A stretch of 64,000 nt of DNA from Candidatus Woesearchaeota archaeon (GCA_016185605.1 JACPNG010000009.1:53838-117837); one strand, 5' to 3'; positions 36,481 to 54,441 are shown, counted from the stretch's first letter. Translations and numbers: made by a program. The notes: generated by a model from the letters alone, not told the origin.

Positions 36481-37482
36481 ATGATTAACATAAAAGAGTT
36501 TATATCCATAATAATTCCAGCTTATAATTCAAAAGACACAATAGAAAAATGTCTTACTTTTATATTCAAATCTAAATATAAGAATTTCGAAGTTATTGTC
36601 GTAGATGATTGCTCAACCGATAATTTATATTTAACAGCTAAAAAATTCCCATGTAAACTAATAAGATTAAAAGAAAGATTTGGACCTGCCAAAGCCAGAA
36701 ATGTCGGAGCTAGTAAGGCTAAAGGCAACATTTTAGTTTTTCTTGACTCAGATTGTATTGTCGGTGAAAATTGGTTAAATAGTATAGTTAGAAATTTCAA
36801 AGAATACAACATTGGAGCTACTGCAGCCCAATATAATGATTCAATAAGTAAAAGTTTTATAGCTAAATTTGCTTTTTATGAACTTCTCTTTAGAGAAAGA
36901 AAATTTGATAAATTCGTAAATACAATTCCTTCCTGTAATTTTGCTTGTAAAAAAGAAATTTTCGAAGAAATTAATGGGTTCTCTGAAGATTTTAGGGGTG
37001 CATCAGAAGATTTAGAGTTTTCTTATAGATTAGGAAAAATAACTAAAATATTATGGGATCCTTCTATAAGCGTAACTCATCATTCCAGAAATAAAATGAA
37101 TGAATATATCAAACAACAGTTTATTAGTAGTAGAGATGATGTTCCATTATTTATAAGACAACCAAACTTATTATTAGAAGACACATTTGAAGATAAAACT
37201 AACTATTTAGAAGTAATATCCCTGGGATTATTTCTTACATTTGTATTCTTATCTTTTTTTATGTTGATAAACCAGTATATCATATTAATGCCATTAATTT
37301 TTACATTCATATTAAATATAAATTTTATGAATTTTATAAGAATTAAAGAAAATATTATTTTTTCCATTAAATCTATATTTTTAGTCTATCTAAGAGACTT
37401 CGTATGGTTTATGGGGGCTTTAGTTGGTCTATTTAATGGAATGAGGGAATTGTTTAGTATAAAAAATGTTAAAGTACACTAA
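36481..37482 (+). CDS. GT2 glycosyltransferase with a C-terminal membrane segment
   Basis: 333 aa. [36 protein letters not shown] helices at the C-terminus. Confidence 0.8.
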   Translation: MINIKEFISIIIPAYNSKDTIEKCLTFIFKSKYKNFEVIVVDDCSTDNLYLTAKKFPCKLIRLKERFGPAKARNVGASKAKGNILVFLDSDCIVGENWLNSIVRNFKEYNIGATAAQYNDSISKSFIAKFAFYELLFRERKFDKFVNTIPSCNFACKKEIFEEINGFSEDFRGASEDLEFSYRLGKITKILWDPSISVTHHSRNKMNEYIKQQFISSRDDVPLFIRQPNLLLEDTFEDKTNYLEVISLGLFLTFVFLSFFMLINQYIILMPLIFTFILNINFMNFIRIKENIIFSIKSIFLVYLRDFVWFMGALVGLFNGMRELFSIKNVKVH

Positions 37483-38533: not shown

Positions 38534-39879
38534 AGATTTTAGTTATAGATGCAAGTTTTATAACATTAAATAATAAGTTTAAGTATGGAGATATAGTTCC
38601 ACAATTGCAGATTGGATATATCATATCTATACTAGAAGAGAATAATTATGAGAATTATTTCTTAGACTGTAAATTAATAAATGATATGGATAACTCGTTA
38701 GAAGATTACTCCAATATAGCCCCCAATATTGTTATAATATCATTTAATACATATGACTATAAATTTGCATTTAAATTAGCCAATTTCTTTAAGGACAATA
38801 ATATCATAATTGCAATAGGTCCACATCCTTCTGTATCGCCTAGCACTGTAGTTTATGAAAATTCTCCATTTGATTTTGTTTTAAGAGGAGAATGTGAGTA
38901 TGATATAATAAATTTAATAAAAAACTTAGATAATATGGAAGAATTAAAAAAGATAAAAAGTTTATATTTTAATGATAAGAAAGACTCAGAAATCTCCCTT
39001 ATAAATCAATTTGATGAATTACCATATCCAAAATACCATTCATATGACGGACAGTATTATCAGATATTACCAGTTCCATTTTTTAAAAAAGCAAAATGGG
39101 GATTTTTAAGCTCTAGTAGGGGGTGCCCTAATTTATGTACATTTTGTTCTCCTGTTCACAGGACATCTTATGGTTATAAATATAGAATTAGATCGAGTAG
39201 GGGGGTAGTAGATGAAATGGAATATTTAGTCTCAATAGGAAAAAATGTCATTGAAATTGTTGATGATAATTTCACAGTATCAAAGAAACAAGTATTTGAG
39301 ATATGTGATGAAATAAAAAAAAGAAACTTAAAAATCAAATGGACTGTTCAAGCAAAAGCAGATACACTTAATAGAGATATAATTTTTAAGATGAAAGATG
39401 CCGGATGTTTTTGTATAAGAATGGGTATAGAAACTGGATCAAATAAGTTGATTAATAATATAAAAAAATATAACGGAGACTGGAAAAATCTCGTTATTGA
39501 TGTTTTCAAGTGGGGGAAAGAAGCTAATATTATTATGAATTCTTATGTCATACTCGGCTTACCAAATGAAACCAAGGAAGATAGAGAAGAAACTGTAAAT
39601 TTACTTAAGGAAGCTAAGCCAGATTTCGTACAAGTTCATTACTTTAAACCATATCCGGGATCTAGTTTATATGAAAATATTAGTAATAAGGAGGATTTTA
39701 ATGAGTATTTATATCATTATAATTGTAGTTCTGAAGAATTCGAAGAAATAAAAAATAAGATACATAAGATAGTCTACTTTAATCCTAGATCAATAACTAA
39801 GCATCTATCTTTATTCAGTGGTTTCTATATTAAAAATCCTAAGATTTTATTAAGATTAATAAACTTCCTATTTAATTAA
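38530..39879 (+). CDS. B12-binding-domain radical SAM protein (class B)
   Basis: 449 aa. Rossmann-like N-terminus. SSSRGCPNLCTFCS carries CX3CX2C. Confidence 0.8.
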   Translation: MKILVIDASFITLNNKFKYGDIVPQLQIGYIISILEENNYENYFLDCKLINDMDNSLEDYSNIAPNIVIISFNTYDYKFAFKLANFFKDNNIIIAIGPHPSVSPSTVVYENSPFDFVLRGECEYDIINLIKNLDNMEELKKIKSLYFNDKKDSEISLINQFDELPYPKYHSYDGQYYQILPVPFFKKAKWGFLSSSRGCPNLCTFCSPVHRTSYGYKYRIRSSRGVVDEMEYLVSIGKNVIEIVDDNFTVSKKQVFEICDEIKKRNLKIKWTVQAKADTLNRDIIFKMKDAGCFCIRMGIETGSNKLINNIKKYNGDWKNLVIDVFKWGKEANIIMNSYVILGLPNETKEDREETVNLLKEAKPDFVQVHYFKPYPGSSLYENISNKEDFNEYLYHYNCSSEEFEEIKNKIHKIVYFNPRSITKHLSLFSGFYIKNPKILLRLINFLFN

Positions 39880-39880
39880 A

Positions 39881-41032
39881 ATGTTTAGAATTATCCCTAG
39901 GCAGAGTGTATCTCATTTAAAGGGACAGTTAAAGATAATGCTAAAAGAAAAAATTTCTGTGGAAAGATTTGAGAACAAATTAGCAAGTTATATTAATATA
40001 AACAATGTTGTGGCTGTTGGATCTGCTACACTGGCTTTTTATCTAATTTTAAAAAACATAAAGAAAACAAATAAGGATGAAGTTATACTATCCAGATATA
40101 ATTACTATGATTTGGCAAATGTTATTGATTATTGTGGAATGAAACCGGTTTTCATAGAAGTAGATGAGAGTTTACAGATGAATATTAGTGAAATTAAAAA
40201 TAAAATATCAAAAAATACTAGAGCTATATTAGTTACTCATTTATTCGGATTTCATTCCGATATTAAAAGTATTTTAAAAACAGCCAAAAAAAACAATATT
40301 TATGTAGTAGAAGACGGCACTCATGCCTTGGGCTCTAGTATAAATAATAAGAAAATTGGTTCTTTCGGTGATTTTGGCATGTTCAGTTTTAATAGATGGA
40401 AAATTATGGATTGTTTTGGTGGTGGGGTTATAGTATCTAATAATGATGCAATTATGAAGAATATAAGAAATGAAATCAGTAAGTACAAATATCCTAATAA
40501 AAATGAGATTCTTAGAAGAATTATTTTCAATTATGTATCTTGGATTTTAACTTTTAAATTAATCTTTAGTCTATTTATATTTCCTATTGTGTATCTTTTC
40601 AATTTGTTTAATAAAGATACTTTATTTGATTTAACTAAAGATGATTTATCAATTAAATTTTCTAATAATAAAAAGTTAAGATTCTCAGAATTACAAGCCA
40701 CTATTGGTTATAAAATGATTGATAATTTAGATTTTATAAATAAAGAAAGGGAAAATAAATACAGGAAACTAATCGCTGAAATCAAAAATAGAAATGTTAA
40801 GACTATTGAGATTAATGGTTTACAACCGATATTCTTTCCTATTATTGTAAAAAACAAGAAATTTGCTTACGATTATTTATTGAAAAACGGCATAGATACA
40901 ATAAGTAAATATTATGGATATAATTTAGATAAAAATAAAAATGTAGAGGATAACTTAATATTAATACCTGTTCATATAAATGTGAATAACTCTGATATTG
41001 ATTATATAGCTGATTGTATAAATAAAATTTAG
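39881..41032 (+). CDS. DegT/DnrJ/EryC1/StrS-family PLP-dependent sugar aminotransferase (or dehydratase)
   Basis: 383 aa. VEDGTHALGS parallels EDCAQAHG. FSFNRWKIMD is the SFxxxK PLP-lysine motif. Confidence 0.8.
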   Translation: MFRIIPRQSVSHLKGQLKIMLKEKISVERFENKLASYININNVVAVGSATLAFYLILKNIKKTNKDEVILSRYNYYDLANVIDYCGMKPVFIEVDESLQMNISEIKNKISKNTRAILVTHLFGFHSDIKSILKTAKKNNIYVVEDGTHALGSSINNKKIGSFGDFGMFSFNRWKIMDCFGGGVIVSNNDAIMKNIRNEISKYKYPNKNEILRRIIFNYVSWILTFKLIFSLFIFPIVYLFNLFNKDTLFDLTKDDLSIKFSNNKKLRFSELQATIGYKMIDNLDFINKERENKYRKLIAEIKNRNVKTIEINGLQPIFFPIIVKNKKFAYDYLLKNGIDTISKYYGYNLDKNKNVEDNLILIPVHINVNNSDIDYIADCINKI

Positions 41033-41148
41033 AATAGGGTATATATGAAAGGTGATATAGAACTACTCTGTCCAAATATCATTAGAATACTAACTAATAA
41101 AAGCATAATCAGTATAGGAAGTAACCACCATTTTTTATTCTCTTTCAT
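41029..41148 (-). CDS. conserved small membrane protein (39 aa: MKENKKWWLLPILIMLLLVSILMIFGQSSSISPFIYTLF)
   Basis: Found by manual minus-strand translation; it is absent from the ORF track. To my recollection, a KKWWL...PFIYTLF-type small protein is a recurrent neighbour of NodU/CmcH carbamoyltransferase genes. Confidence 0.45.
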   Translation of the reverse strand: MKENKKWWLLPILIMLLLVSILMIFGQSSSISPFIYTLF

Positions 41149-41205
41149 AAAACCCCATGAGTCTCTTAAAAGATAAAATCTAGTCATATCATTCTAATAA
41201 ATCAA

Positions 41206-42882
41206 TCATTTATTAATCTTTTCAATCAAAAAATTATCCATAACCAAAACATCTATTCCTGTATTAATAAAACAATTGTATGCATTTTTTGGACTACAAA
41301 CAATAGGTTCTCCTCTAACATTAAATGAGGTATTAATTAATATTGGAATTTTACTTATTTTTTTAAATTCTTTTATCAAATTATAAAATTTAGGATTATA
41401 TCTCTCTTCAATGGTTTGTAGTCTAGCTGTATTATCAAAATGAGTTACAGCTGGGATTTTTTTACTTTTAACATCACAAACTAAGGTCATAAATGGGTCA
41501 TATTGCTTAATATTAAAATAATGATGGACCTCTTCTTTTAGAGCAGTAGGAGCAAAAGGTCTAAAATCTTCCCTATGTTTAACCTTATTATTTAATCTAT
41601 ATTTCATGTCTTTATTGGTCGGATTTGCTAATATGCTTCTATTTCCTAACGCTCTTGGACCAAACTCCATTCTTCCTTGAAACCACCCAATTATTCTATT
41701 GTTGTTTATTAGCCTAGCAACTCTTTTTAGTAGTTCTTTTTCTTCTAGTTCTTCAAATTTTATATTATTATTTATTAAGAAATCCCTTATCTCTGTATTA
41801 GAAAAACTAGGACCTAAATAAACATGTTCTATGGTCTTTCTTTTGTTTTTTAGTATAACATTATAAATATAATAAGCAACGCCTAAAGCTCCCCCGGAGT
41901 CTCCAGCAGCTGGTTGTATAAATATTTCTTTAAACTTAGTTCTTTTTAATATTTCAGTGTTAGCAACACAATTTAATGCTATACCGCCACCAATACAAAG
42001 TTTATCTAATTTAGTTTGTTCATAAACATAATCTGATATCTTAATTATAATATCTTCTAATAATTTTTGAAGGGATGCTGCTAAGTCTTTATGTTTTTGT
42101 TCTATTTTTGATTCTGGAATCCTAGATTTCCAAAATTCTTTTTCCAATTTCTCGTTAAACATCTTCAATTTATAAGAATAAGCAAAATAATCCCGATTAA
42201 GTCTATAACTGCCATCTTCATTTATATCTATTAATTTCTTTAATCTATTATAATATATCGGCTTGCCATAAGAAGCTAATCCCATTATCTTATATTCATC
42301 ATTATTAACTTTAAAACCTAAAAAAGATGTAATTGTAGAATAAAACAATCCTAAAGAATCTGGAAAATTAATTTCTTTCAATAATTTAATTTCATTATTT
42401 TTGCCATAACCATAACTTGTAGTTGTCCATTCACCAACTGCATCTAATGTTAAAATTGCCGCTTCTTTAAATGGAGATACTAAAAAAGTGGATGCTGCAT
42501 GACTCATATGATGTTTTATAAAGATAATTTTCCCATTATACTTTAGTTTCTTTCTTATTAAAGTAGGAATTCTTAATTTTTCAGTTAACCAAGAAGGCAT
42601 GGCTTTGCAAAAGCTCCAATATGATTTTGGAAATGTATCAATATAAGTTGAAATTAATCTATCAAACTTTAATATCGGCTTTTCATAAAATCCAATGTAT
42701 TCTATATCATTTATGTCAATTTTTGCCTCTTCTAAACAATATTTTATTGAATTAATTGGAAAAGAGTTATCATGCTTTTTTCTAGTAAATCTCTCTTCTT
42801 CTACTGCAGCTATTATATCATTATTTTTGATCAAGCATGCAGCTGCATCATGATAAAAACAAGATATTCCCAGTATATACAT
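41206..42882 (-). CDS. NodU/CmcH-family carbamoyltransferase
   Basis: 558 aa. MYILGISCFYHDAAACLIKNNDIIAAVEEERFTRKKHD matches the family's N-terminal consensus. Confidence 0.9.
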   Translation of the reverse strand: MYILGISCFYHDAAACLIKNNDIIAAVEEERFTRKKHDNSFPINSIKYCLEEAKIDINDIEYIGFYEKPILKFDRLISTYIDTFPKSYWSFCKAMPSWLTEKLRIPTLIRKKLKYNGKIIFIKHHMSHAASTFLVSPFKEAAILTLDAVGEWTTTSYGYGKNNEIKLLKEINFPDSLGLFYSTITSFLGFKVNNDEYKIMGLASYGKPIYYNRLKKLIDINEDGSYRLNRDYFAYSYKLKMFNEKLEKEFWKSRIPESKIEQKHKDLAASLQKLLEDIIIKISDYVYEQTKLDKLCIGGGIALNCVANTEILKRTKFKEIFIQPAAGDSGGALGVAYYIYNVILKNKRKTIEHVYLGPSFSNTEIRDFLINNNIKFEELEEKELLKRVARLINNNRIIGWFQGRMEFGPRALGNRSILANPTNKDMKYRLNNKVKHREDFRPFAPTALKEEVHHYFNIKQYDPFMTLVCDVKSKKIPAVTHFDNTARLQTIEERYNPKFYNLIKEFKKISKIPILINTSFNVRGEPIVCSPKNAYNCFINTGIDVLVMDNFLIEKINK

Positions 42883-42883
42883 T

Positions 42884-43111
42884 TTAAAACATTTTATAAT
42901 GACTTTTATTTTCCCTGTATTCTCTCCAATAAGTACATTTATTGTTTGAATCTAGAAATTTTTTATTAGATATTTTAGCAAATAAACTTACTATTCCTAT
43001 GCCTATAAAATAAACAAAAGTCAATAGTATTATATTTATAATAAACTGGATAAATAAACTTATTCTCTTAAATAAATCTAATAAACTTTTGAAAATATTT
43101 CTCATCATCAT
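42884..43111 (-). CDS. small single-TM protein directly upstream of the carbamoyltransferase (possible SxtJ-like partner)
   Basis: 75 aa with one hydrophobic helix FIINIILLTFVYFIGIGIVSLFA. There is a 1-nt gap to the carbamoyltransferase start. Confidence 0.4.
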   Translation of the reverse strand: MMMRNIFKSLLDLFKRISLFIQFIINIILLTFVYFIGIGIVSLFAKISNKKFLDSNNKCTYWREYRENKSHYKMF

Positions 43112-43113
43112 TT

Positions 43114-44538
43114 CTAAGGTAGCTTATAAATATAAGTTTTATCATTATATACTTTGGTATAACCACAATCTAATTTCGTTTGAGATAATATAAAATCTAT
43201 ATCATATCTTTTAATTATATTTGTCTTTTCATCACAGTCTACTTCATAAAATCTTCTAACCATATCTATATTTCCACTCAATAAATTACCTTTTGTATGT
43301 GCAATAACAAGATTCTTGCTTATTGGATAAATAGCACTAGATTGAGGTAATGGTGACATAATTACCTTACTCTTAAATTGTGATAATAATTTTATCGCTT
43401 CATAATCTTTATCTTCAACAACATGATATAAACCAGAATCCTTATCTAAGTTGTAGTAATTAAAAAATGTGAAATAAAAAACAATTAATAGTATGATTGG
43501 AATTAACCAAACTAATTTACCTTTTAAAACACCCAATAGGGAGTATAAACCAATAGAAGATAAAGGAACTAACCCAATCATAGCATAATAAAGTACTCTC
43601 TGATAAGGGAATAAAATACTAAATCCAAAATTATGAAATAAAAATATTAAAGATAAAGTAATAAATGAGATTATAAGAAAAATTCTTGAGTTTTTATTCT
43701 TAATACTTGGATAGATTCCGATAAATGCTAATAATGTTGGAATTATTCCATAGAATGACGGTAAAAAATATTGTTTTTCAACATATCCCCAACCTTCTTC
43801 TATTATTAGCCAATCTAATAAAAGATTAAAGATTTCCGAATTTTCCCTAATTAGGATAAATAATAATATAATGATTGATGTTGGAATTATCATCAAAAAT
43901 ATGGATAATGGTCTAAAATTTTCAATCTCTTTATGATGTAATAATAAATAGATAAAACTAACAATTAATAATAAAATTAATGATATTGCATGTACAAATA
44001 AAAGTAGAATCAACGGGATAACGCTATAAAAAAAATATTTTATTTTATTCTCCTCAAAGTATTTTAAGAAAAATAAAAAATAAAGGAATATAATGGGAAT
44101 TGCTAAGGTTAATGGCAGAAAGAACCATAACCCCTGTATGTTTATATTACTTTTTAAAGATGAAAAAAATAATATTGAAAATAATCCAATATAGAAATTA
44201 CTTGTTATTTGATGAACTAATAAAAATAAGATAAAAGCTGCAAGAGTTGCAAAAATAGCCGGAAGAAATTTATAACCCATAATTGGATCAATAAATCTGA
44301 ATAAAAAAGACAAAAATACAGTAAATCCCGGCTCAAGGTTTGGCTGAAATGGTTTATCTACTAAATTCGGGTTTCTTTGCAATTCTTTTGTTTCTGAAAA
44401 ATAAACAGCTTTAGAAATATGTTGCCATTCATCCACATGTAAAGGATATTTATAATCAGAATGCGGGCTATAAACCAAGATAAAAATTAATATTAAAGCT
44501 ATTATTAATAAAGTATATTCATATTTCTTAAATTTCAT
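43114..44538 (-). CDS. polytopic membrane protein (possible GT-C-like; VDEWQH in the first loop)
   Basis: 474 aa, about 12 TM helices. DEWQH loosely resembles GT-C DE-type motifs. It is first in the minus-strand operon with the carbamoyltransferase. Confidence 0.55.
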   Translation of the reverse strand: MKFKKYEYTLLIIALILIFILVYSPHSDYKYPLHVDEWQHISKAVYFSETKELQRNPNLVDKPFQPNLEPGFTVFLSFLFRFIDPIMGYKFLPAIFATLAAFILFLLVHQITSNFYIGLFSILFFSSLKSNINIQGLWFFLPLTLAIPIIFLYFLFFLKYFEENKIKYFFYSVIPLILLLFVHAISLILLLIVSFIYLLLHHKEIENFRPLSIFLMIIPTSIIILLFILIRENSEIFNLLLDWLIIEEGWGYVEKQYFLPSFYGIIPTLLAFIGIYPSIKNKNSRIFLIISFITLSLIFLFHNFGFSILFPYQRVLYYAMIGLVPLSSIGLYSLLGVLKGKLVWLIPIILLIVFYFTFFNYYNLDKDSGLYHVVEDKDYEAIKLLSQFKSKVIMSPLPQSSAIYPISKNLVIAHTKGNLLSGNIDMVRRFYEVDCDEKTNIIKRYDIDFILSQTKLDCGYTKVYNDKTYIYKLP

Positions 44539-44541
44539 ATT

Positions 44542-45252
44542 TTAATCTTCTTCTAAGCTCTTTAGTTTATTAATTAAGACTCCAAGTTCGTTTATGGTTT
44601 TTTTAATAAAATTGTTTAATTCAGTTTCTTTTAAATTTTTAAATTTTAAATCAACATTTCTAAATGCCAATTTAAATATTTTCTTGATATCTTCTTGTTG
44701 AATAGTTTGTATTACTTCTTCAATAAGCTGAATTACATTCTCTTTTTTTTTAAAAAGCGCTATATCTACTTTTCTTATTAAATATGATATATCATATAAA
44801 TCCTTGAATTCTTTTCTATTAACAAACGTTAGTGCTTTAGTGATAAAAATTCTTTCTGTAGGATAAAGATTAAGTTGCCCAACTTTAATTAAATTTTTGG
44901 GTAACTCTACAAAATCAATATCTATCTTACTATAAATTATTTTATGTGTTTTCAATTCTAATTTTATATGGTATCTATTAGTAGATGCAAAAGCAGATTT
45001 TGTTATCTTAAAATCTTTTACTATTTGTTTCCGTTTTAATCGTTCTAAGATTGCAGTAAGGTAATTTTGTATTTCCTTATACTTTTTAATTAGATGTTTA
45101 TCTGCATCAAAATCAAGATCTTCTGATTCTCTATGACTATTTAGATAATAGATTGATAATGCTGTTCCGCCTTTTAATACTAAATCAAATGGATTATCTT
45201 TTTCTACTTCCAGAAGAAATTCTCTTATTATATTTAATATTCTAGACGCCAT
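44542..45252 (-). CDS. AbiEii/DUF1814-like nucleotidyltransferase (type IV toxin-antitoxin toxin-like)
   Basis: 236 aa. LVLKGGTALSIYYLNSHRESEDLDFDAD matches the AbiEii NTase signature (hGGTAL...RxSxDLDh). Confidence 0.65.
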   Translation of the reverse strand: MASRILNIIREFLLEVEKDNPFDLVLKGGTALSIYYLNSHRESEDLDFDADKHLIKKYKEIQNYLTAILERLKRKQIVKDFKITKSAFASTNRYHIKLELKTHKIIYSKIDIDFVELPKNLIKVGQLNLYPTERIFITKALTFVNRKEFKDLYDISYLIRKVDIALFKKKENVIQLIEEVIQTIQQEDIKKIFKLAFRNVDLKFKNLKETELNNFIKKTINELGVLINKLKSLEED

Positions 45253-45844
45253 ATTTTGAATAATCTATTTTTTGTTTTGGTAAGATATTTTTAAACTTAT
45301 CAATATTTTTTACAAACATATTTTTGTATCTTGCAAGCATCTGTATCCATACATTTTCTGTGTATTTATTCTTAGTAAAGGCTATATCTTTAATGATCTG
45401 CTCATTGGTTGCATATTTTAAGCCTGATTCTTTATCTATGACTATTTTACTGCTCTTTATTGACTTTATTCTTATGAACTTAATGGTTTTGTCATTTAAA
45501 GTAACAGTCCCTTCTACTTTTGTGTTTATTATTTCAACTATCTTAGGCTTAAAATACCAACCATATCCATTATGTTTTAAGGCTTCTAAACCAGTTATAT
45601 AATAAGAGCCAATTATGTCTAGCAATATCAAATAGTTATCTTTTAGTTGTTCTATGCTCATAAAACTTTGTAGTAATGTAATTTTCTTCTTCATTTTCCC
45701 CCTTAGATATCTCTTTTCATTTTCTGTTAATTTTTTGCCATTGTCAAGCTTTTTGATTACATTAAATTGTACAGGTTTAAATAGAGTTGGAACTATCAAA
45801 TCTTCTTCTTCTACTATCCAATGTATTATTCTTTGGTTTATCAT
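45242..45844 (-). CDS. putative cognate AbiEi-like antitoxin/regulator (200 aa), overlapping the toxin start by 11 nt
   Basis: Its position and 11-nt overlap with the AbiEii-like gene fit a bicistronic toxin-antitoxin layout. No strong motif is recognised in the sequence itself. Confidence 0.35.
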   Translation of the reverse strand: MINQRIIHWIVEEEDLIVPTLFKPVQFNVIKKLDNGKKLTENEKRYLRGKMKKKITLLQSFMSIEQLKDNYLILLDIIGSYYITGLEALKHNGYGWYFKPKIVEIINTKVEGTVTLNDKTIKFIRIKSIKSSKIVIDKESGLKYATNEQIIKDIAFTKNKYTENVWIQMLARYKNMFVKNIDKFKNILPKQKIDYSKYGV

Positions 45845-46033: not shown

Positions 46034-46579
46034 ATGAGAAAAAAAGAGACAAAACATAATAGCTCTTATTATTCAGATTTACAAAAAGATAGAAATCTAG
46101 AGATTCTTAAATTAGCCATAAACGAGTTAAAGGAGAAGTATAATTTAAATTATAGTGAGATTCTTAGTTTAATTAAGGAAGAGCCTAAAGAATTAGAAAT
46201 TCCAATTTCTGCATTCTCTAATAAAAAATTAAGCACTTTAGAAATTATATGCAAATATCTAAAGGAAATCAGAAATCTCAAATATCATGATATTGCTATT
46301 TTAATAAGAAGAGATGACAGGACTATATGGACTACTTATCAAAACTCCCTTAAGAAATTTTCAGATCCTTTAGTAATAGAAAAATCTGAAATTTTTATTC
46401 CCGTCTCAGTTTTTGCTAATAGAAATTTCTCTTCATTAGAGGCTTTAATTGTTTTCCTAAAAGAAGTTTCCAAATTACGATATAATGAGATTGCCAAATT
46501 GCTGAAGAAAGATCAACGTAATATCTGGACCGTTTACAACAGAGCAATCAAAAAAAGAGGTGTAAATGAGAAAGGTTGA
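46034..46579 (+). CDS. DNA-binding protein with two tandem sigma-70 region-4-like (LuxR/ECF-r4-type) HTH domains
   Basis: 181 aa. Repeat 1 is IPISAFSNKKLSTLEIICKYLKEIRNLKYHDIAILIRRDDRTIWTTYQNSLKK. Repeat 2 is IPVSVFANRNFSSLEALIVFLKEVSKLRYNEIAKLLKKDQRNIWTVYNRAIKK. The pattern L..LE....FL.E...L.Y.EIA.LL.K...NIWT.Y.RAIKK parallels sigma r4 (e.g. RpoE LSYEEIAAIMDCPVGTVRSRIFRAREAI). The 3' end overlaps the next gene by 14 nt. Confidence 0.6.
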   Translation: MRKKETKHNSSYYSDLQKDRNLEILKLAINELKEKYNLNYSEILSLIKEEPKELEIPISAFSNKKLSTLEIICKYLKEIRNLKYHDIAILIRRDDRTIWTTYQNSLKKFSDPLVIEKSEIFIPVSVFANRNFSSLEALIVFLKEVSKLRYNEIAKLLKKDQRNIWTVYNRAIKKRGVNEKG

Positions 46580-49550
46580 GCTAGAAATAACTAGCTACAG
46601 AAAGAGAATAGAGAATCTAAATAGTAAGATTCAGCTATCTCAATCTAAGAAGAGAGAGATTATTGAATATGTAAAGAGATTGACATTGCTACATCATAAA
46701 TCTAAGATTAGCAATGAGCAGTATAACATAGAGCTATACAGATTCTTAAAAGGAAGTTCTTATGACGAATGGATTAGATATTATGATTCTTATATTAATG
46801 AATGCCATAAAGAAATATCTAATTATAGTAGAGAGATTAATAGATACAAGACAAAAGAGATAATATCAAATAAAGTCATTAATACAGTTTCAAGCCCGTA
46901 CTTCATAATTTTTGCTTTATTAACTATAACATTTGGATTCTTCTTGTTTACAGGAACAACTCCATTTGAACCAACTGGACTAGTCATAGGAAATGTGACA
47001 TTTAATCAAACAAATATTGAATATTTAATCGGAAATAATTTGTCAGATGTAAATGTTACATTAGAATTGAAGAGGAATGATTTAATTCCAGCTGGGTCTA
47101 ATGTAACTGTTATGATTATAAATGAAAATTCATTAATATTAAACATTTCATCAATGAACCTAACAGACTTTATATTGAATTCAACTATTCCATTATGTAC
47201 AAATGGAACTATAGATGTATTGAATGATGTAGATAATGTATATAATTGGGAGGGTGAAACTGCCTATGGTTATGCCCACAATGATACACAATCTGGAGAT
47301 CTAAGTTTCTCATTATGTAATGATGGAGACCCTAATTCCAATATCTATGATGTAAATTTAAGAGAGTTCTTTGAAGGAGGAGATCCAACAGTTCCAAGTG
47401 AGATTGGAATTTATAATATATCTATGAATATCACAAATCAGAGTGATCCCGGAGAAGAACAGGTTGTATTTACAACACAATTATTTGTAGTTGGAAATCC
47501 AGCACCAATATTTGATGAAGTAAGCAACTTTACATTGAATGAAGACTTTGCAACAGCGATAGAATTAAACTTAAGCGATAATGTAACTGATGCAATAGAA
47601 TTAGATAGAGATATAAATTATACTATAACATTAACAGATTCTAGTGTTATAACAGCAGAGTTTGATCTTATTAATGGAACTGGGAATCTAACATTTAGAA
47701 GTGTTGCTAATGTTACAGGAGAAACAAATGTAAATGTAACTGTATATGATTTGAATGGAACTGGGGTAACAAATAGTACCCTATTTACAGTAACAATTAA
47801 TGCAGTAAATGATCCTCCTGGATTAGCTACTATAGCTGACTTTAGTTTGAATGAGGACTTTACAATATTTGAATTGAATATTAGTGAGAATCTAACTGAT
47901 ATAGATGATCCACATAGAGATATTAATTATACTTCAACAAGTTCAGATACGTCTGTAATAACAGTACAAATTGAGAATGGAACTGGAAACTTGACATTCT
48001 TCTCTGTAGCTAATGCTACCGGAAGTTCAACAATCAATATAACAGCATATGATAATAATGGTAGTGTTACAGATGGATTAAATGACAGTAAAGAATTTGT
48101 TATAACAGTAAATGCTGTAAATGACAATCCTTTATTCAATGATATAGGAAACTTCTCAATAACAGAAGACTCTCAACTGCAAGAACTAAACATTTCATTA
48201 AATATTTCAGATGTTGATGATCCTCACAGGGATTTGAATTACACAATATTTGAGAATAATTCTTTATTCTCTATATTGGCAGTAGAGAACGGAACAGGAA
48301 ACTTCACTTATCAACCATCTGGAAATGTAACAGGAACAACTACAATTAATATAACAGTAATAGATTCAAATGGAACTGGATTAATAGAATCAGATACATT
48401 TGACTTGACAATAAATGCCGTTAATGACAAGCCATTATTTGATGCTATAGCAGACATTGACTTGGATGCAAACTTCGCAACATTTGAAATTAATCTAAGC
48501 GATAATGTAACTGATGTGGAAGATCCAGACTCGCAGCTTAATTATACTATTGAAAATAATAATTCAGCCGCATTAACAACAGAATTTGATTTGATTAATG
48601 GAACTGGGAATTTGACAATAAGAGCAGTTCAAGATGTACAAAATACTAATGCAACCATTAACATAACATTATATGACCAAAATGGAGAAGCAGGATATGA
48701 AATAGAAAGCGATGAATTTATTATAACAATAGGGTCAATAACGAATGTGGCTCCAGAAATAACATTCTTATCTGAAAACGTCAATTCAACATTCGATCCA
48801 TTAGAAGGAGACATTAGAAATATAGAGTTTAGTGTTATAATAAATGATTCTGATGGAGATGCTGACATAGGAAATGTTACAGCTAACTTTACGCAAGGGA
48901 CTATTCTAAGAGAGAATATAACAATGTGTGTTCCAGAAGAGACAGGAACAGACACATTTAGCGTCAATTTCTCATGCACTATAGGATTGCAATACTTTGA
49001 CCTTAATGGAGATTATATAATAAACATAGAAGCGAATGATTCACAGGGAGTGACTGCTATTAACAATACTATTACATTGACATATAATCTATTGACTGCA
49101 ATGAATTTAAGTGTAAATGCATTGACATTATCAACTGCAAATCCAGACGACCAAAATATAACAAACAGCACAGACACTAGTTTCTTGAACATAACAAATA
49201 CAGGAAACCAGCCTGGATTGAATATTAGTGTAAATGCATCTGATCTAGGAAATGAAACTACAATATTTACAATACCAGCAGAGAACTTTACATTTGGAAA
49301 TATTAGCATAGATTATACTGGGAGTTCATTCGCTGAATGTATGGATTCTACAATAGATGATCCATTGAATCAAACAACAAATCTTGTAAATGCCACTCTA
49401 ACTTCAGTTAATGGAATAATAGAAAGAGGGGCTGGAGAAACTAGTTCATTATACTTATGCCTAAGGCATGTTCCAGCTGGAATTCCAGGAGTAGCATATA
49501 GCACCTCATTGGGCGGGTCTTGGAGCATACAAGTAGCTCTTGAACCATAA
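46566..49550 (+). CDS. giant type-II membrane surface adhesin: cytoplasmic N-terminal helical domain, one TM, four cadherin-like repeats (...NAVNDxP), and a C-terminal domain shared with the 49659 ORF
   Basis: 994 aa. N-terminal 110 aa charged coiled-coil. TM segment YFIIFALLTITFGFFLF. About four 105-aa repeats each end in INAVNDPP, VNAVNDNP, INAVNDKP or a final GSITNVAP. Extreme N-x-S/T density. Confidence 0.8.
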   Translation: MRKVELEITSYRKRIENLNSKIQLSQSKKREIIEYVKRLTLLHHKSKISNEQYNIELYRFLKGSSYDEWIRYYDSYINECHKEISNYSREINRYKTKEIISNKVINTVSSPYFIIFALLTITFGFFLFTGTTPFEPTGLVIGNVTFNQTNIEYLIGNNLSDVNVTLELKRNDLIPAGSNVTVMIINENSLILNISSMNLTDFILNSTIPLCTNGTIDVLNDVDNVYNWEGETAYGYAHNDTQSGDLSFSLCNDGDPNSNIYDVNLREFFEGGDPTVPSEIGIYNISMNITNQSDPGEEQVVFTTQLFVVGNPAPIFDEVSNFTLNEDFATAIELNLSDNVTDAIELDRDINYTITLTDSSVITAEFDLINGTGNLTFRSVANVTGETNVNVTVYDLNGTGVTNSTLFTVTINAVNDPPGLATIADFSLNEDFTIFELNISENLTDIDDPHRDINYTSTSSDTSVITVQIENGTGNLTFFSVANATGSSTINITAYDNNGSVTDGLNDSKEFVITVNAVNDNPLFNDIGNFSITEDSQLQELNISLNISDVDDPHRDLNYTIFENNSLFSILAVENGTGNFTYQPSGNVTGTTTINITVIDSNGTGLIESDTFDLTINAVNDKPLFDAIADIDLDANFATFEINLSDNVTDVEDPDSQLNYTIENNNSAALTTEFDLINGTGNLTIRAVQDVQNTNATINITLYDQNGEAGYEIESDEFIITIGSITNVAPEITFLSENVNSTFDPLEGDIRNIEFSVIINDSDGDADIGNVTANFTQGTILRENITMCVPEETGTDTFSVNFSCTIGLQYFDLNGDYIINIEANDSQGVTAINNTITLTYNLLTAMNLSVNALTLSTANPDDQNITNSTDTSFLNITNTGNQPGLNISVNASDLGNETTIFTIPAENFTFGNISIDYTGSSFAECMDSTIDDPLNQTTNLVNATLTSVNGIIERGAGETSSLYLCLRHVPAGIPGVAYSTSLGGSWSIQVALEP

Positions 49551-49630
49551 ATAATTAAATAAAATAGAGAATAAACGATAATAAAGTTTATATATAAATA
49601 ATCAATTATAAATGGGATAAAATACAATAA

Positions 49631-49641
49631 GTTTATATATT
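49631..49641 (+). promoter_or_regulatory. candidate TATA box (gtttatatatt) about 23 nt upstream of the ATG at 49659
   Basis: aagtttatatattaaaaag sits directly upstream of the start codon. Leaderless spacing. Confidence 0.3.
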
Positions 49642-49658
49642 AAAAAGAGATAGCAAAA

Positions 49659-50633
49659 ATGATGAATATACAAAAAGGGGATTTTCTATTTATATTTATC
49701 ATAATGGGTGTTTTAATTTTCCTTCCTTTAGCATCTGCTGGATTCTCAGATTGGTTTTCAGGATTAATGGACATAACTGGCTGGCCTGTTGGAGATGTGA
49801 CAACTGTTTCAATAGCATTATCCAATGCTGCTCCAAATGTTAGCGAGGTATCTGCAAATGTAAATTCCTCATTTGATCCTATTGAGGGCGGTTTAAGAGA
49901 GGTTGAATTTACAGTTATAGTGAATGACACAAATGGGGATGCTGATATACAAAATGCTTCAGCCAACTTTACCCAAGGAACTACAGAAAGAGTTAATGGT
50001 ACTTGTGAAAGAGGAGATGTTGGAACAGATAGCGCCAGCGCTAATTTTTCATGTACTATTTCTCTGCAATATTTTAATCCTAATGGAGATTATATAATAA
50101 GGGTTGAGGCAAATGATTCATCTGGACTAGGAGATATAAATAATACTTTAACATTAACATATAATCTATTAACAGCAATGAACTTGTCAGTAAATGCATT
50201 GACATTGGCAGCAGCAGATCCTGACGAATATAATATTACAAATAATTCAGCCACTGACTTCTTGAATATTGAAAATACAGGAAATCAGGCTGGATTGAAT
50301 TTAAGCGTGAATGCATCTGATTTAGGAACAACAAATGCCCAAGCAGGTGCAAATGATTTTATTCCAGCTGAGAACTTTACATTTGCTAACATAAGCATTG
50401 ATTATGACGGGGTGTCAAAAGCAGAATGCATGGATTCTACTTTAGATGGAAATCAAACTACTAATTTGGTTAATGCTACTCTAACAGCTGTTACTGGAAT
50501 AATTGATAGGGGAGCAGCCCAATCAAGTTCATTATATCTATGTTTAGTTCATGTTCCAGCTGGTATTGGGGCATATACTTATGACACAACAAGAGGAGGA
50601 TCATGGAGTGTATTGGTAGCTTCTGAGCCATAA
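49659..50633 (+). CDS. secreted or anchored surface protein, standalone paralog of the C-terminal approximately 290 aa of the 994-aa adhesin
   Basis: 324 aa. N-terminal signal/TM. ...NFTQGT...NFSCTI(S/G)LQYF(N/D)(P/L)NGDYII...EANDS... and LTLTYNLLTAMNLSVNALTL are shared almost verbatim with adhesin residues about 700-994. Confidence 0.75.
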   Translation: MMNIQKGDFLFIFIIMGVLIFLPLASAGFSDWFSGLMDITGWPVGDVTTVSIALSNAAPNVSEVSANVNSSFDPIEGGLREVEFTVIVNDTNGDADIQNASANFTQGTTERVNGTCERGDVGTDSASANFSCTISLQYFNPNGDYIIRVEANDSSGLGDINNTLTLTYNLLTAMNLSVNALTLAAADPDEYNITNNSATDFLNIENTGNQAGLNLSVNASDLGTTNAQAGANDFIPAENFTFANISIDYDGVSKAECMDSTLDGNQTTNLVNATLTAVTGIIDRGAAQSSSLYLCLVHVPAGIGAYTYDTTRGGSWSVLVASEP

Positions 50634-50640
50634 ATAAATA

Positions 50641-51252
50641 ATGGAGAATAAAATGAAGATAATAAAAAAACTGAATATTTTTGTTTTAATAGCTGTATTA
50701 TTGAGCATTAATGTAATTGCATTTGGGGTTTCAACCTCTTATTGGCCTGGGAAGCCATTAGTTTTGGAGCCAGGAGAATCAATGGATGTTTATTTCACAT
50801 TGCAAAATGGAGCTGGCGCTACAGAAGATGTAATAGCAAATGTTGATTTAACTAATGGAAAAGACATTACTCAAATAATAGATGGAAGCAATAGTTATTT
50901 AGTAAAAGCTGGAGGAGAATCTAGAGTAAATTTAAGGGTTCAGATTCCAGATAATGCTAATGTAGGAGATACATATACTGTTGGAATATCAGTTACAGCC
51001 CTGCCAAGCGGAAGGGGGGGTCCAGTTACAATTGGAAGTTCTGTAGATGCCACATTCCCTGTATTGATACAACCTCATGAGCCAGTTCCAACAGCTCCTA
51101 CTGGAGAGGCTGTCAAAGGAATTAAGGGAAGCTATAATATTTATTCTGTTGTGGGATTATTATTGATAATAGCAATAGTAATATTTATATTCTACGAACT
51201 CCATAATAAAAAAAGTGGAACAGAAAAAGGAAAAGGCAAAAAAAGAGATTAA
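50641..51252 (+). CDS. small cell-surface protein with an N-terminal signal/anchor and a C-terminal TM plus basic tail
   Basis: 203 aa. N-terminal IFVLIAVLLSINVIAFG. C-terminal VVGLLLIIAIVIFIFYELHNKKSGTEKGKGKKRD. Confidence 0.6.
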   Translation: MENKMKIIKKLNIFVLIAVLLSINVIAFGVSTSYWPGKPLVLEPGESMDVYFTLQNGAGATEDVIANVDLTNGKDITQIIDGSNSYLVKAGGESRVNLRVQIPDNANVGDTYTVGISVTALPSGRGGPVTIGSSVDATFPVLIQPHEPVPTAPTGEAVKGIKGSYNIYSVVGLLLIIAIVIFIFYELHNKKSGTEKGKGKKRD

Positions 51253-54097
51253 AGAAGTTTTAGTTATAATAATAGTTGTATTGCTATTTTTTCTTTTTAT
51301 AACAAATTACGCAAAGATATTTGAGATAAGTTCAGCTACTATAATTGATGCTGCCACAATATTTGAGATTTTTGCTGTTTCAGACACAACAACTATAGCA
51401 ATTAGTATTCAAACTCCTGTTCCTAATATTACCACTACTCCTATAACTACTGCAACAGAAGATGTATTATATGAATATGATGTTAATGCAACAGGCCATA
51501 ATTTAATCTTCTCAGTAAACAGCAGCGGGCTTTTCACAATTAATTCTGAAAGTGGATTAATTTCATTTACCCCAAGAAATGGACAAAACGGAACACACTC
51601 TATAAATATAAGCGCTTTTGATAATAACAGAAGTATTGACAGCCAAAATTATAGTCTAGTAATAAGTTCAGTAAATGACGCTCCTATTCTAAATACTGTT
51701 GGAGATTTAACTGGCGAAACAGGAAGCTCAAATACATACACAGTAACAGCAACAGACGAGGAGAATGATACATTAACATTCAGCATTCCTAGCAAGGATA
51801 ATGACTTATCTATGACTATAAACAGCAATACTGGGGTTATAACAATCCCTTCTGGCAACACTGCTGGAAATTACTCTGCAACAATAAGGGTTAGCGATGG
51901 CAATAGCAACGATGATGAAGATATAATGGTTAATATAGTAACAACAAATACAGCTCCGGAAATATTGGCTTTCGCTAACAGCATCTCAAATAATTTAGTT
52001 CCAATAATAAGGGAAGATCAAAATATCTCATACAATATAACATATAATGATGATAATGGTAATAACACAGTAAGCATAATATGGAAGCAAAAAAATGGAA
52101 GTTTGAGTTTTGATGATATAAGCAATGGGGAAAATTTTACTTTCTTTGGTGCTGTGGGAAGCACAGAAGGAACCTATCAAATAAAAGCAACTATTTCAGA
52201 CGGATTAACAAGCGTAGATTCAAATATCTCAAATTTAACAGTCACAAAAGTCAAAGATAGCGATGGAGATGGGGTTTTTGACTATACGGATAATTGCAAG
52301 TTTATAAAAAATGCCAACCAGGCAGACAGTAATAGTAACGGCATTGGTGATGTATGCGAGGATGATTTGGACGGAGACGGAGTAGATGATAGTGATGATT
52401 TCATAGATGGTTTTGCCAGTTCAATAAATGCAGTAGACAGCAGCGGAAGCAATATTACAGTAAACTTCACAATCAATAATGATGATAATATTAACCAAAG
52501 TTTTAATGGAGTAAAAACAGTGGCTATAACCTCAACAACTATCGATTCATCTACTGGAAGCACAATTATCGAGCCAATTGTTGAATTTGACCATAATTTT
52601 AACAGCGCAAATAAGCTTGATCTTTCTAATATGAGCATTAAAGAAGAGACAAAAGTCATTAATGGAGAATCCTCTTCTGTTGTTGTTGTTTCTGGGATAT
52701 CTCTTGGGAGCGGAAACACAAAAACAGCATATTTAGAAGTACTATTAGATGGAAATGGTGTTTGCATAAGGGATGAAGAGATTACAAATATAGATGAATT
52801 AAGCACAGACTGCAGCAAGGCTAATGAGAAAAGCATTGGATGTGATGGTAGCACTCAAAACGGATTTACATGCGAGAAAAATACTACATTCAATAAGTAT
52901 AAGATTACTGGATTAAGTTTCAGCGGCATTGGCGAAGAGGAATGCACTGAATCTTGGAGTTGTACCTCATATTCAGCTTGTTCTAATGGACAGCAAACAA
53001 GAACTTGTACAGATTCAAACAATTGCGGCACAACAAATAATAAGCCAGCTGAAAGCCAGTCTTGTGGTGGTAGTGGTGAATCACAAGCTGGCGGAGGAGG
53101 CGGAGGTGGAGGAACTACAGGAAGGGCAGTTGAAAGTAAGATAAAAGAAGGTGTAAGAGTCTTATTAATAGACAATAAACTAATTAATGTCCAGGTTAAA
53201 AAAGGAGACTCATTCAAAAAAACAATAAAGATAAAGAATATAGCAAGTTCTTCTGTAGAGGTTAATCTAGAGCAACAAGATGAATTAAAGGGAATAATAT
53301 CATTCCCAGAGCCAAGGTTTACTCTGGCTTCATTAGAGGAAAGAGAAATAGAAATCCTATTTAATTCCGGAGCTGGAATAGTTCCTGGGGTTTATGTTGG
53401 TGAAATATATGCTGTTTATCAAGATATAAGGGAAAAAATACAGGCTGTAATCGAAATTGAATCTTTAAGGACATTATTTGATGTTACTCTGGATATTCCA
53501 TTAGACTATAAAAAAGTGCTGCCTGGAAAAGAGTTTAGATTGCAAGCTACAATATTTGATTTATCTGGATTGAGATCAGATGTCAATGTTGAGTTTTTCA
53601 TTAGAAACTCAAAAGGCAATACAATATTAAGAGAAAGCCAGATTGTTAGGGTGCAAAATCAAGCTACATTTACCAAGAGCTTTTTGATTCCAGAGGATAT
53701 TCCATTGGGAGAATATATTGTGGGGGCAATTGTCAAGTATAAAGACTCAGTTGGAACTTCCACAAAAAGATTTGATGTAGTTGGTGAAAAAGGATTAATA
53801 GAAATAAGCATACCAAATACTGTTTATTATATTGGTTCTGGGATATTGATGATTTTAATAGCATTATTTGGATTGTATTTATTGCAACAAAGAAGACTAA
53901 AAAGTATAGAAAAATCCCAATCTATTAGGTTGAAGGAATTAGAAAAGAAAACTCCAGAGACTGAAATGGAAAAGACAGATCATAATAAGAAATTAGAAAA
54001 TGAATTAAGCTTGTTGGAAAAGAGCTATAAAGCAGGCTATATCACTAAATCAATATATGAGAAAAGCAAATCCAAGATTGAGAAATTAATGAAATAA
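51215..54097 (+). CDS. large surface protein: N-terminal TM, cadherin-like domain (SVNDAPILNTVGD), thrombospondin type-3-like Ca-binding repeats, Cys-rich module, Gly8 linker, a second TM and a cytoplasmic coiled-coil tail
   Basis: 960 aa. The TSP3-like segment DSDGDGVFDYTDNCKFIKNANQADSNSNGIGDVCEDDLDGDGVDDSDD fits DxDxDGxxDxxDNCPxxxNxxQxDxDxDGxGDxC. Also SQAGGGGGGGGTTGR. C-terminal TM GSGILMILIALFGLYLL followed by a Lys/Glu-rich tail. Confidence 0.8.
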   Translation: MEQKKEKAKKEIKEVLVIIIVVLLFFLFITNYAKIFEISSATIIDAATIFEIFAVSDTTTIAISIQTPVPNITTTPITTATEDVLYEYDVNATGHNLIFSVNSSGLFTINSESGLISFTPRNGQNGTHSINISAFDNNRSIDSQNYSLVISSVNDAPILNTVGDLTGETGSSNTYTVTATDEENDTLTFSIPSKDNDLSMTINSNTGVITIPSGNTAGNYSATIRVSDGNSNDDEDIMVNIVTTNTAPEILAFANSISNNLVPIIREDQNISYNITYNDDNGNNTVSIIWKQKNGSLSFDDISNGENFTFFGAVGSTEGTYQIKATISDGLTSVDSNISNLTVTKVKDSDGDGVFDYTDNCKFIKNANQADSNSNGIGDVCEDDLDGDGVDDSDDFIDGFASSINAVDSSGSNITVNFTINNDDNINQSFNGVKTVAITSTTIDSSTGSTIIEPIVEFDHNFNSANKLDLSNMSIKEETKVINGESSSVVVVSGISLGSGNTKTAYLEVLLDGNGVCIRDEEITNIDELSTDCSKANEKSIGCDGSTQNGFTCEKNTTFNKYKITGLSFSGIGEEECTESWSCTSYSACSNGQQTRTCTDSNNCGTTNNKPAESQSCGGSGESQAGGGGGGGGTTGRAVESKIKEGVRVLLIDNKLINVQVKKGDSFKKTIKIKNIASSSVEVNLEQQDELKGIISFPEPRFTLASLEEREIEILFNSGAGIVPGVYVGEIYAVYQDIREKIQAVIEIESLRTLFDVTLDIPLDYKKVLPGKEFRLQATIFDLSGLRSDVNVEFFIRNSKGNTILRESQIVRVQNQATFTKSFLIPEDIPLGEYIVGAIVKYKDSVGTSTKRFDVVGEKGLIEISIPNTVYYIGSGILMILIALFGLYLLQQRRLKSIEKSQSIRLKELEKKTPETEMEKTDHNKKLENELSLLEKSYKAGYITKSIYEKSKSKIEKLMK

Positions 54098-54162: not shown

Positions 54163-54441
54163 ATGGATTGGGAATTATTATCTTTTATCAAGAGATCTGT
54201 TCAAAGAACTAGAATATTAGAAGCTATAGACCAGCCAATTACCCCTTCTGAATTAGCTAAAAAAACTAATTTGGCTCCTTCCCATATAAGCAGAACAATA
54301 AAAGAATTCTCTGAAAAAGGGTTATTGGAATGTAAAACCCCCAATCATAATCACGGCAGGATATATTTTCTGACAGATAAAGGCAAAGAAATTACTGAGA
54401 TAATTAAAGGTGGGGAGTTAGCTGATGAATATTCTAAATAG
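54163..54441 (+). CDS. small winged-helix transcriptional regulator (ArsR/MarR-like)
   Basis: 92 aa. PITPSELAKKTNLAPSHISRTIKEFSEKGLLEC is a typical wHTH recognition helix plus wing. Confidence 0.7.
   Translation: MDWELLSFIKRSVQRTRILEAIDQPITPSELAKKTNLAPSHISRTIKEFSEKGLLECKTPNHNHGRIYFLTDKGKEITEIIKGGELADEYSK

Follow-up and report, generated by a model that had tools for sequence, protein, structure and literature searches.

The S-layer of Sulfolobus acidocaldarius carries one glycan per 30–40 residues, a density that has been called unmatched among the Archaea (PMC4287180). For DPANN archaea no S-layer protein has been determined, according to a preprint which also reports that Nanobdella aerobiophila, a DPANN archaeon that has been brought into culture, has aglBDE and surface proteins of immunoglobulin (Ig) fold with many predicted glycosylation sites (bioRxiv 10.1101/2023.10.27.564410). 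In this study, we analysed a 64,000 nt stretch of DNA, hereafter the window, from a groundwater metagenome-assembled genome (MAG) of Candidatus Woesearchaeota, and in it a set of genes, most of them for predicted surface proteins, on the + strand at positions 46034–54441, which we call R, A, B, C, D and E. A preliminary description of this DNA had pointed to a 994-aa (amino acid) adhesin (A) dense in N-glycosylation sequons, to a second copy of its C-terminal domain encoded by a gene of its own (B), and to an adjacent island of genes for glycan biosynthesis. We show here that the number of sequons in A and B far exceeds what composition yields, that the shared C-terminal module, termed X, defines a widespread protein family, and that R-A-B-C-D is a conserved cassette of Woese-, Pace- and Nanoarchaeota. 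Dense N-glycosylation of A and B is the best reading of these data, because the sequon excess is conserved family-wide and is confined to predicted extracellular parts, and because STT3/AglB is common in the clade. We propose, and hold it to be reasonably probable, that the proteins form a glycan-coated envelope complex in which A is the adhesin, X its membrane-proximal base, B a paralogous partner and R the cytoplasmic end.

A and B resemble SlaA and other AglB substrates of S. acidocaldarius in being exported, Ig-rich envelope proteins with sequons confined to the extracellular part, from a clade in which AglB/STT3 is present. They differ in density, since A has one sequon per ~12 residues as against the glycan per 30–40 residues of the Sulfolobus S-layer (PMC4287180), and no sequence or fold relation to SlaA or SlaB was found. 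By description, they are also like the surface proteins of N. aerobiophila, which are hypothetical DPANN proteins with Ig-like folds, 13–49 predicted sites and N- or C-terminal transmembrane (TM) anchors; however, the density in the candidate S-layer protein of that organism is 1.5 sites per 100 aa (15 over a length of 1000 aa) as compared with 7–8 per 100 here, and the portion of the preprint drawn on describes no X module, A/B pair or helix–turn–helix (HTH) fusion (bioRxiv 10.1101/2023.10.27.564410). Among DPANN archaea, glycosylated surface proteins with Ig folds are a known type. We found no description of the present cassette in the literature, Pfam, NCBIfam or the PDB, and in these sources the X module, an A/B pair under concerted evolution, a sequon-free C and the fusion of a sigma-4-like HTH domain to a giant surface protein are without prior description. 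The genes and domains that carry the argument are the following.

46034..46579, + strand: R (R181), cytoplasmic protein with two HTH units like those of sigma-70 region 4/LuxR; overlaps the start of A by 14 nt
46566-49550, + strand: A (A994), whole gene, the 994-aa adhesin
46566..46898, + strand: A aa 1–111, basic N-terminal cytoplasmic domain, kept in the A proteins of relatives
46902..46952, + strand: A aa 113–129, sole TM helix of A, predicted N-in anchor (Kyte–Doolittle scan)
46956..47489, + strand: A aa 131–308, variable distal ectodomain with 13 sequons
47490..48734, + strand: A aa 309–723, four cadherin-like or 'tandem-95' repeats
48735..49547, + strand: A aa 724–994, X module, made of two Ig-like beta-sandwiches and bearing 19 sequons
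49551..49658, + strand: A–B intergenic spacer, AT-rich, read directly from the sequence
49659-50633, + strand: B (B324), whole gene, 324-aa exported protein
49659..49739, + strand: B aa 1–27, Sec-type signal peptide (...PLASA-G) with hydrophobic N terminus
49740..49814, + strand: B aa 28–52, conserved N-terminal extension (GFSDWFSGLMDITG...), not found in the X module of A
49815..50630, + strand: B aa 53–324, free-standing X module with 18 sequons
50641..51252, + strand: C (C203), Ig-like protein with a signal peptide and a C-terminal TM anchor; starts 7 nt past the end of B
51215..54097, + strand: D (D960), N-terminal TM or signal segment, variable ectodomain and conserved C-terminal ~320 aa

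The gene calls for A, B and R are those of NCBI (994, 324 and 181 aa; HYX17_01980–01990), where all three are annotated 'hypothetical protein'. Sequons were counted as N-[^P]-[ST], and the expected number was derived from residue shuffles that keep composition (2000 shuffles for A). A contains 70 sequons against 23.0 ± 4.1 by shuffling (z 11.5), a number that none of the 2000 shuffles reached, and B contains 18 against 6.1 expected (z 5.5). All sequons of B lie beyond the signal peptide, and 69 of the 70 in A lie past the TM helix, the 111-aa cytoplasmic head having a single one. The ectodomain of A carries 8.0 sequons per 100 aa and its repeats 8.8; the example first given, of 10 sequons in about 100 aa (A positions 321–403), is correct. 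Sequons take up 57% of the Asn residues of A and 53% of those of B, and 67% of the sequons of A have a hydrophobic residue in the middle, as compared with 39% in the background. The other 51 open reading frames (ORFs) of the window, with 0.65 sequons per 100 aa and 8.6% of Asn within sequons, are far below A and B. Four control patterns, namely D-x-[ST], N-[ST], N-x-x-[ST] and the sequon read backwards ([ST]-x-N), were at or below expectation. Because the reversed and shifted motifs and the background of window ORFs are negative, the effect is positional and not compositional.

This bears on the suggestion that the excess might be an artefact of N/S/T-rich, AT-biased and internally repeated sequence, with B as a decaying duplicate. 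Such an origin has something to recommend it in a genome of ~26% GC (~24–35% within the window), in a protein with 12% Asn and 20% Ser+Thr, and in the fact that four internal repeats will multiply any motif. However, composition-keeping shuffles yield 23 sequons and not 70, the control motifs show no enrichment, and the sections of A are enriched separately, including those outside the repeats (aa 131–308, z 5.2 and 7.3 per 100 aa; X module, z 5.8; repeats, z 9.0). The repeats, which are ~101–109 aa long, are just 40–55% identical to one another and yet retain six sequon columns common to all four, and B is intact, exported and conserved across ~1,700 cluster representatives. An origin by composition or repetition is thus extremely improbable, being ruled out by the shuffles, the divergence of the repeats, the separate enrichment of the sections and the conservation throughout the family. 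The preliminary description had also called the neighbours of A sequon-dense, which is true of B and does not hold for C, with 0 sequons, or for D, with 21 against 15.7 expected (z 1.5), all 21 of them within the first 560 aa. The C-terminal 400 aa of D (52895–54097) and the whole of C (50641–51252) are sequon-free although extracellular.

Among 162 proteins of the X family, the median is 5.0 sequons per 100 aa and z exceeds 3 in 89%. An alignment of 161 X homologues has nine sequon columns occupied in at least 50% of the sequences, seven of which are occupied in 74–91%; in B of the window, N103, N113, N129, N161, N192 and N239 stand in conserved columns. Over 32 cassettes the median density is 4.7 per 100 aa for protein A (z>3 in all), 5.5 for B (z>3 in 91%), 2.9 for D (z>3 in 72%) and 0.0 for C (z>3 in none), and in C sequons are in fact depleted family-wide, with 24 observed against 38.4 expected, a number as low being found in 4 of 1000 shuffles. 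The A protein of the window stands at the top of the density range of its family. As for the enzyme, a Woesearchaeota locus (L029; loci of relatives are referred to by such numbers) encodes an 868-aa STT3 protein with a WWDYG motif, and this protein has 346 homologues at E≤1e-20, many of which are named Woese- or Nanoarchaeota.

The last part of A and the mature part of B are clearly copies of one module. A aa 724–994 (A-X) and B aa 53–324 share 66% identity (E 3e-105), 17 of the 18 sequons in B coincide with sequon positions of A-X, and a hidden Markov model (HMM) of the B family matches A aa 716–994 (E 4e-129), which confirms the earlier observation that the last ~290 aa of the adhesin recur as the product of 49659–50633. 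The module as present in B had no match in Pfam, in NCBIfam or among PDB sequences. Structure prediction for the shared domain, which had been put forward as a check, was run with AlphaFold2 on a 17-sequence alignment and gave a model of two beta-sandwich domains (mean pLDDT 76.6). A Foldseek comparison of this model with PDB and BFVD returned only generic Ig-like, E-set and FnIII matches with TM-scores of 0.2–0.3, and no pilin, TasA, thread subunit or S-layer protein was among the top PDB matches. Many of the sequons, most of which read N-(hydrophobic)-T/S, fall in predicted beta-strands of the model. In a beta-strand, the Asn at i and the Thr or Ser at i+2 point the same way; based on the model, we therefore infer that the glycans may coat the outward faces of the module.

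Between the signal peptide, whose (V/A)SA-G junction is conserved in homologues, and the X module, B has the N-terminal extension in which 'ITG' is nearly invariant among homologues. In a model of full mature B this extension is disordered (pLDDT ~40 for model residues 1–27). A motif '(I/L)TG(F/K/R)A(T/V)' follows the N-terminal hydrophobic helix in A (46953–46990), B (49740–49814) and D (~51300–51400); at this site B reads FFSDFWGKITG(K/R)AT and D repeats ITGExVTGEA, and the counterparts of these genes in L014–L093 are likewise. It may be a signal for processing, sorting or strand donation. The spacer in front of B has five stop codons in the natural reading frame and TTTATATA-like boxes ~20–28 nt upstream of the B start codon. 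Such boxes in an AT-rich spacer make it possible that B-C-D has its own promoter, apart from R-A, and these genes may be transcribed from it.

A-X and B are more alike within a genome than across genomes, with a mean identity of 64.5% (range 39–98%) in the former case and ~37% in the latter, and the nearest relative is the own partner in 23 of the 32 genomes. When the own partner is excluded, A-type modules are nearest to A-type modules in 27/32 genomes and B-type to B-type in 25/32. This preference points to an old duplication overlaid by repeated gene conversion, and indicates, as far as such comparisons allow, that the two have since been kept alike by conversion. Recent duplication as the sole cause of the likeness was rejected, given that the pair exists at ~30% cross-lineage identity and shows the type-to-type preference just described. 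In the window, A-X and B are ~70% identical at the DNA level with many synonymous differences, and therefore no very recent conversion has taken place there. Among close strains, B usually diverges faster than A-X. The loci L001 and L002 have ~98% DNA identity except in B and C (63–78%, locus ~10000–11500); at the protein level B is 73% and C 79% identical between them, as compared with 96% for A and 99% for R, and the 3' half of the L001 B gene is 83.5% identical to A-X. B and C are thus a hotspot of strain-level diversity between these two loci.

The extent of the X family became apparent from an exhaustive HMM profile search of 1.84 billion representatives, 1729 of which matched at E≤1e-3 and 477 at the stricter E≤1e-30. 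A word-indexed protein search had given B a mere 8–15 relatives; this 'tiny family' was discarded, since that search missed the long proteins and the HMM found ~100 times more. Of 162 X-family proteins, 125 are free-standing (~300–340 aa) and 37 are long. In 30 of the 37 (440–4368 aa), the chain runs on from X into a short hydrophobic segment, then a polybasic cluster and finally an R-type domain; six have X at the very C terminus, as in A of the window, and one has a tail without R match. R of the window is homologous to the C-terminal tails of the A proteins of L005 (4397–9979) and L007 (1–714), with E 1e-36 to 1e-40, and has no hydrophobic segment. As R lacks an export signal, its domain should act in the cytoplasm, the segment after X in the fused form should then cross the membrane, and X would adjoin the membrane. 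The preliminary description had offered B as either a modular partner or a capping domain. Because X is predicted to be membrane-proximal, with the hydrophobic segment, polybasic cluster and HTH domain behind it in 30/37 long members, the cap is not borne out; a partner, by contrast, is supported by the synteny of A and B (32/41 genomes, see below) and by their concerted evolution. In the clade of the window (window, L013, L014 and L017), R has split off upstream of A, with which it keeps the 14 nt overlap, and A stops exactly at the end of X.

A genome scan with an R alignment, using one genome per species, gave at least 236 confirmed loci, and the counts that follow are from the best 80. Their labels are Woese-, Pace- and Nanoarchaeota; in addition, a single locus is labelled Aenigmatarchaeota and a few are labelled Methanosarcinales or Bacillota. 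Of the 80, ~38 have the fused X-R form. Forty-one A-type genes had at least 1.3 kb of downstream sequence: B comes directly after A in 32 of them, C after B in 32/32 and D after C in 29/32, and in 11 of the 32 cassettes the gap between B and C is exactly 1 nt. Protein look-up gave the order A(X)-B-C for the window and eight further distinct loci. In close relatives (L001–L004 and L013) the order R-A-B-C-D-E is unchanged and begins immediately behind FtsZ...GatD-MJ1316, and distant relatives (L005, L007, L008, L009 and L011) have A(X)-B-C(-D) without nearby glycan genes. Complete XR-B-C-D cassettes or R genes also lie on contigs labelled Bacillota (L046) or Methanosarcinales (L022, L033, L035, L041, L055 and L082), and these non-DPANN-labelled contigs are most likely mis-binned or mislabelled MAG contigs.

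The N-terminal domain of A (aa 1–111) has 22 K+R as compared with 14 D+E, is 44–46% identical to the N-termini of L001 and L002, and contains a motif (...EWI.YYD.YI.EC...) that is conserved in more than 20 loci. It is followed by the TM helix (Kyte–Doolittle mean 2.41 over 17 aa) and by an extremely acidic ectodomain with 123 D+E as compared with 14 K+R. In Pfam and NCBIfam scans aa 131–308 had no family match. The repeats have the boundary motif (I/V)NAVND(P/N/K)P or the variant SITNVAP. One repeat scores above the cut-offs of the Pfam families Cadherin_4 (31.0 bits, cut-off 25.1) and Big_9 (27.0 bits, cut-off 23.6), and three stretches match the NCBIfam family tand_rpt_95 (NF012211) at 49.7 bits, below the cut-off of 90. 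The acidic composition and the DxD/VNDNP-type motifs seen in the sequence would be compatible with calcium binding and adhesion. A is comparable with bacterial cadherin-like or 'tandem-95' adhesins, which likewise have ~100-aa tandem units with a VNDxP end and an acidic ectodomain; it differs from them in being archaeal, in having only four repeats with ~9 sequons each and a sub-cut-off NF012211 score, and in combining an N-terminal TM anchor with a C-terminal X module.

Downstream of B, C has its TM segment at aa 167–183 and a weak Pfam match to NPCBM_assoc/NEW3. The variable ectodomain of D matches He_PIG, Big_9 Ig domains and TSP_3 (thrombospondin type-3 repeats) in Pfam; its C-terminal ~320 aa, which are 70% identical to those of L001 D, consist of Ig-like domains, a TM helix (aa 873–889) and a cytoplasmic coiled coil. 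R scores 20.4 bits with the Pfam family Sigma70_r4_2 (PF08281), below the cut-off of 25.7, in its window copy. Among 16 aligned members of the R family, PF08281 is matched by all 16 (best E 2.3e-11) and HTH_23 by 13, and the best PDB match is the archaeal transcription regulator 8hnp (E 0.03). Free-standing R-like genes (170–200 aa) are also found outside the cassette in L015, L016, L018 and L020 (around 10000–15600), often in the arrangement R, a D-like protein of ~300 aa, further genes and a second R, which suggests that the HTH domain family of R has other membrane-protein partners.

According to the envelope complex model that we propose, A and B would be N-glycosylated by AglB at about one Asn per 12–18 residues, with glycans covering the outward faces of the X beta-sandwiches. 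X would be the membrane-proximal base module of A, and the repeats would project from the base of the complex for Ca-dependent adhesion. A-X and B would probably bind one another and/or have a common anchored docking partner in C; B would probably stay at the surface by way of A-X and/or C, an anchor protein whose translation is coupled to that of B, and gene conversion would keep A-X and B compatible. R, which is predicted to bind DNA, would probably be the cytoplasmic end of the system. We infer all of glycan occupancy, A–B–C contacts, adhesion and the regulatory role of R.

Several points weigh against this model. Glycosylation of A and B is read from sequence and not from experiment, and the contacts among A-X, B and C from synteny and co-evolution alone. 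AglB was not found in the window, and the locus tag of the MAG is not among the best 120 STT3 matches. The N-x-T triplets that are conserved might in principle serve the structure instead of carrying glycans. For genes that lie ~100 nt from each other, conversion can arise neutrally from their being neighbours, and in 9 of the 41 loci A is not directly followed by B. The putative second TM segment of relatives is short, with 8–17 uncharged residues, and in the clade of the window A has no such segment, so that X would not be covalently held at the membrane.

Two other envelope structures were considered for the same proteins. One is a filament or pilus of the FimH/FimA kind, with B as the polymerising shaft subunit, its extension as the donor strand, A as a terminal or anchoring adhesin built in by means of its own copy of X, and C and D as assembly or anchor factors. 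As in FimH/FimA, a large adhesin ends in a module that a small neighbouring gene encodes alone with an N-terminal extension: A has adhesive repeats plus X, and B has X plus the conserved ~25-aa extension. B possibly has its own promoter, and from one close strain to another it changes faster than A-X. Archaea are known to have donor-strand filaments with heavy N-glycosylation, namely the 'threads' of Sulfolobus and the bundling pili of Pyrobaculum. The extension is disordered in the monomer model, as donor strands often are, and by itself such predicted disorder neither supports nor refutes a donor strand. Against a filament, the top PDB matches of the X model are only generic Ig-like proteins, the model offers no demonstrated incomplete Ig fold, and no fold or sequence relation to FimH or FimA was found. 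No usher, chaperone or dedicated peptidase was found in the cassette. X lies beside the membrane in most A proteins, with a TM segment after it in most relatives, and this placement would put A at a base and not at a tip. We therefore regard a filament as quite unlikely.

An S-layer-like lattice built on the logic of SlaA and SlaB, in which B would be the abundant subunit of a glycosylated canopy and C the membrane stalk, with A and D inserted as adhesive or sensory proteins via X or Ig modules, seems to us very unlikely. It would account for the tight coupling and near-universal presence of B and C in the cassette and, judged by sequons, for a glycan-rich B and a glycan-poor C, as expected of an outer and a buried protein. 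The S-layer candidates of DPANN archaea are glycosylated Ig-fold proteins (bioRxiv 10.1101/2023.10.27.564410), and the concerted evolution of A-X and B would fit a need to match one lattice. However, B is small for an S-layer protein (~30 kDa), X abuts the membrane in A and leaves no room for a pseudoperiplasm, and neither the PDB sequence search nor Foldseek revealed a likeness to any S-layer protein.

A more far-reaching idea is that the cassette is a contact-sensing device of episymbiotic DPANN archaea, in which host binding by the ectodomain is relayed to transcription via the sigma-4-like HTH domain. The wiring of adhesin to HTH would be covalent in most lineages and would run via the split-off R in the clade of the window, while B, C and D would be required as co-receptors or base subunits that gene conversion keeps in step with A. 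The fused X-TM-R form is similar to ToxR and CadC in that a single chain joins a part outside the cytoplasm, a membrane segment and, in the cytoplasm, a domain of DNA-binding type. It differs from them in that the HTH of R is sigma-70-region-4/LuxR-like, tandem and C-terminal and not an OmpR-type winged helix, and in that the ectodomain of the fused form is an adhesin of 400–4000 aa that is predicted to be glycosylated; in the window itself, R has a gene of its own and A goes no further than X, so that the three parts are not in one chain. We consider contact sensing unlikely. If true, ToxR-type one-component signalling would have a counterpart in archaea, of the size of an adhesin.

Two further features flank the cassette in the window.

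54163..54441, + strand: E (E92), small winged-helix regulator downstream of D (Pfam HTH_45/HTH_24/MarR)
7176..45844, no strand assigned: glycan-biosynthesis island, given as context (Pfam scans)

E is 67% identical to its counterparts in L001 and L002 and is conserved in close relatives only; in L005 an unrelated membrane protein is found at this position. A 650-aa gene (54683–56635) between E and the endonuclease III gene has no counterpart there in L001 or L002 and reads as a second small indel relative to close relatives; from the look of its sequence, the product might be thioredoxin-like. The island occupies ~39 kb between GatD (5498–6778) and R, is not present at the syntenic position in L001 or L002, and has a GC content of 24–29% as compared with 29–34% for the cassette. 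It contains genes for GT2 and GT4 glycosyltransferases, RmlD, a Wzm/Wzt ATP-binding cassette (ABC) exporter, a PMT_2-type GT-C enzyme, radical SAM, a sulfatase and a carbamoyltransferase, and ends with an AbiEii toxin gene (44542–45252) and its upstream 200-aa partner (45242–45844). The Wzm/Wzt exporter, which includes a Wzt C-terminal domain, a pair of PMT_2-type GT-C proteins and a YfhO-like 887-aa membrane protein are encoded at 22191–24187, 15584–17437, 32998–34362 and 18235–20898. Two adjacent small genes (29048–29449 and 29568–30032) share an N-terminal stretch (…ILSNDEIAKKSRGLKKQG) and form a tandem duplication.

The preliminary description had linked the sequon-dense proteins functionally to this island. 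A Pfam scan of 29 island ORFs and the cassette proteins, in which ORFs such as those from 34374–35063 to 39881–41032 were left out, gave no STT3, and no WWDxG motif occurs in any reading frame of the window. The link is not supported, in view of the absence of STT3 from the scanned island ORFs and of the relatives' cassettes that have no island. Because close and distant relatives alike have the cassette without it, the island is strain-specific and not a conserved partner, and it looks like a strain-specific insertion. The presence of Wzm/Wzt and PMT_2 proteins and the lack of an STT3 match suggest that it encodes an ABC-dependent glycan pathway, that is, O-mannosylation or a polysaccharide-like product, and not the AglB step.

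DPANN archaea live attached to other cells, and the molecules with which they build their surface and attach are almost unknown. The present analysis defines a widespread unannotated module with ~1,700 cluster representatives as well as a cassette of four to five genes, whose R domain is found in at least 236 species-level genomes, and it provides a testable glycan map of 7–9 conserved sequon positions. The predicted glycosylation density is ~2.5–3 times that of the Sulfolobus S-layer, and a domain of DNA-binding type is physically tied to a giant surface protein. The X module and the cassette proteins are therefore targets for glycoproteomics, cryo-electron tomography and structural work on the contact between DPANN archaea and their hosts.

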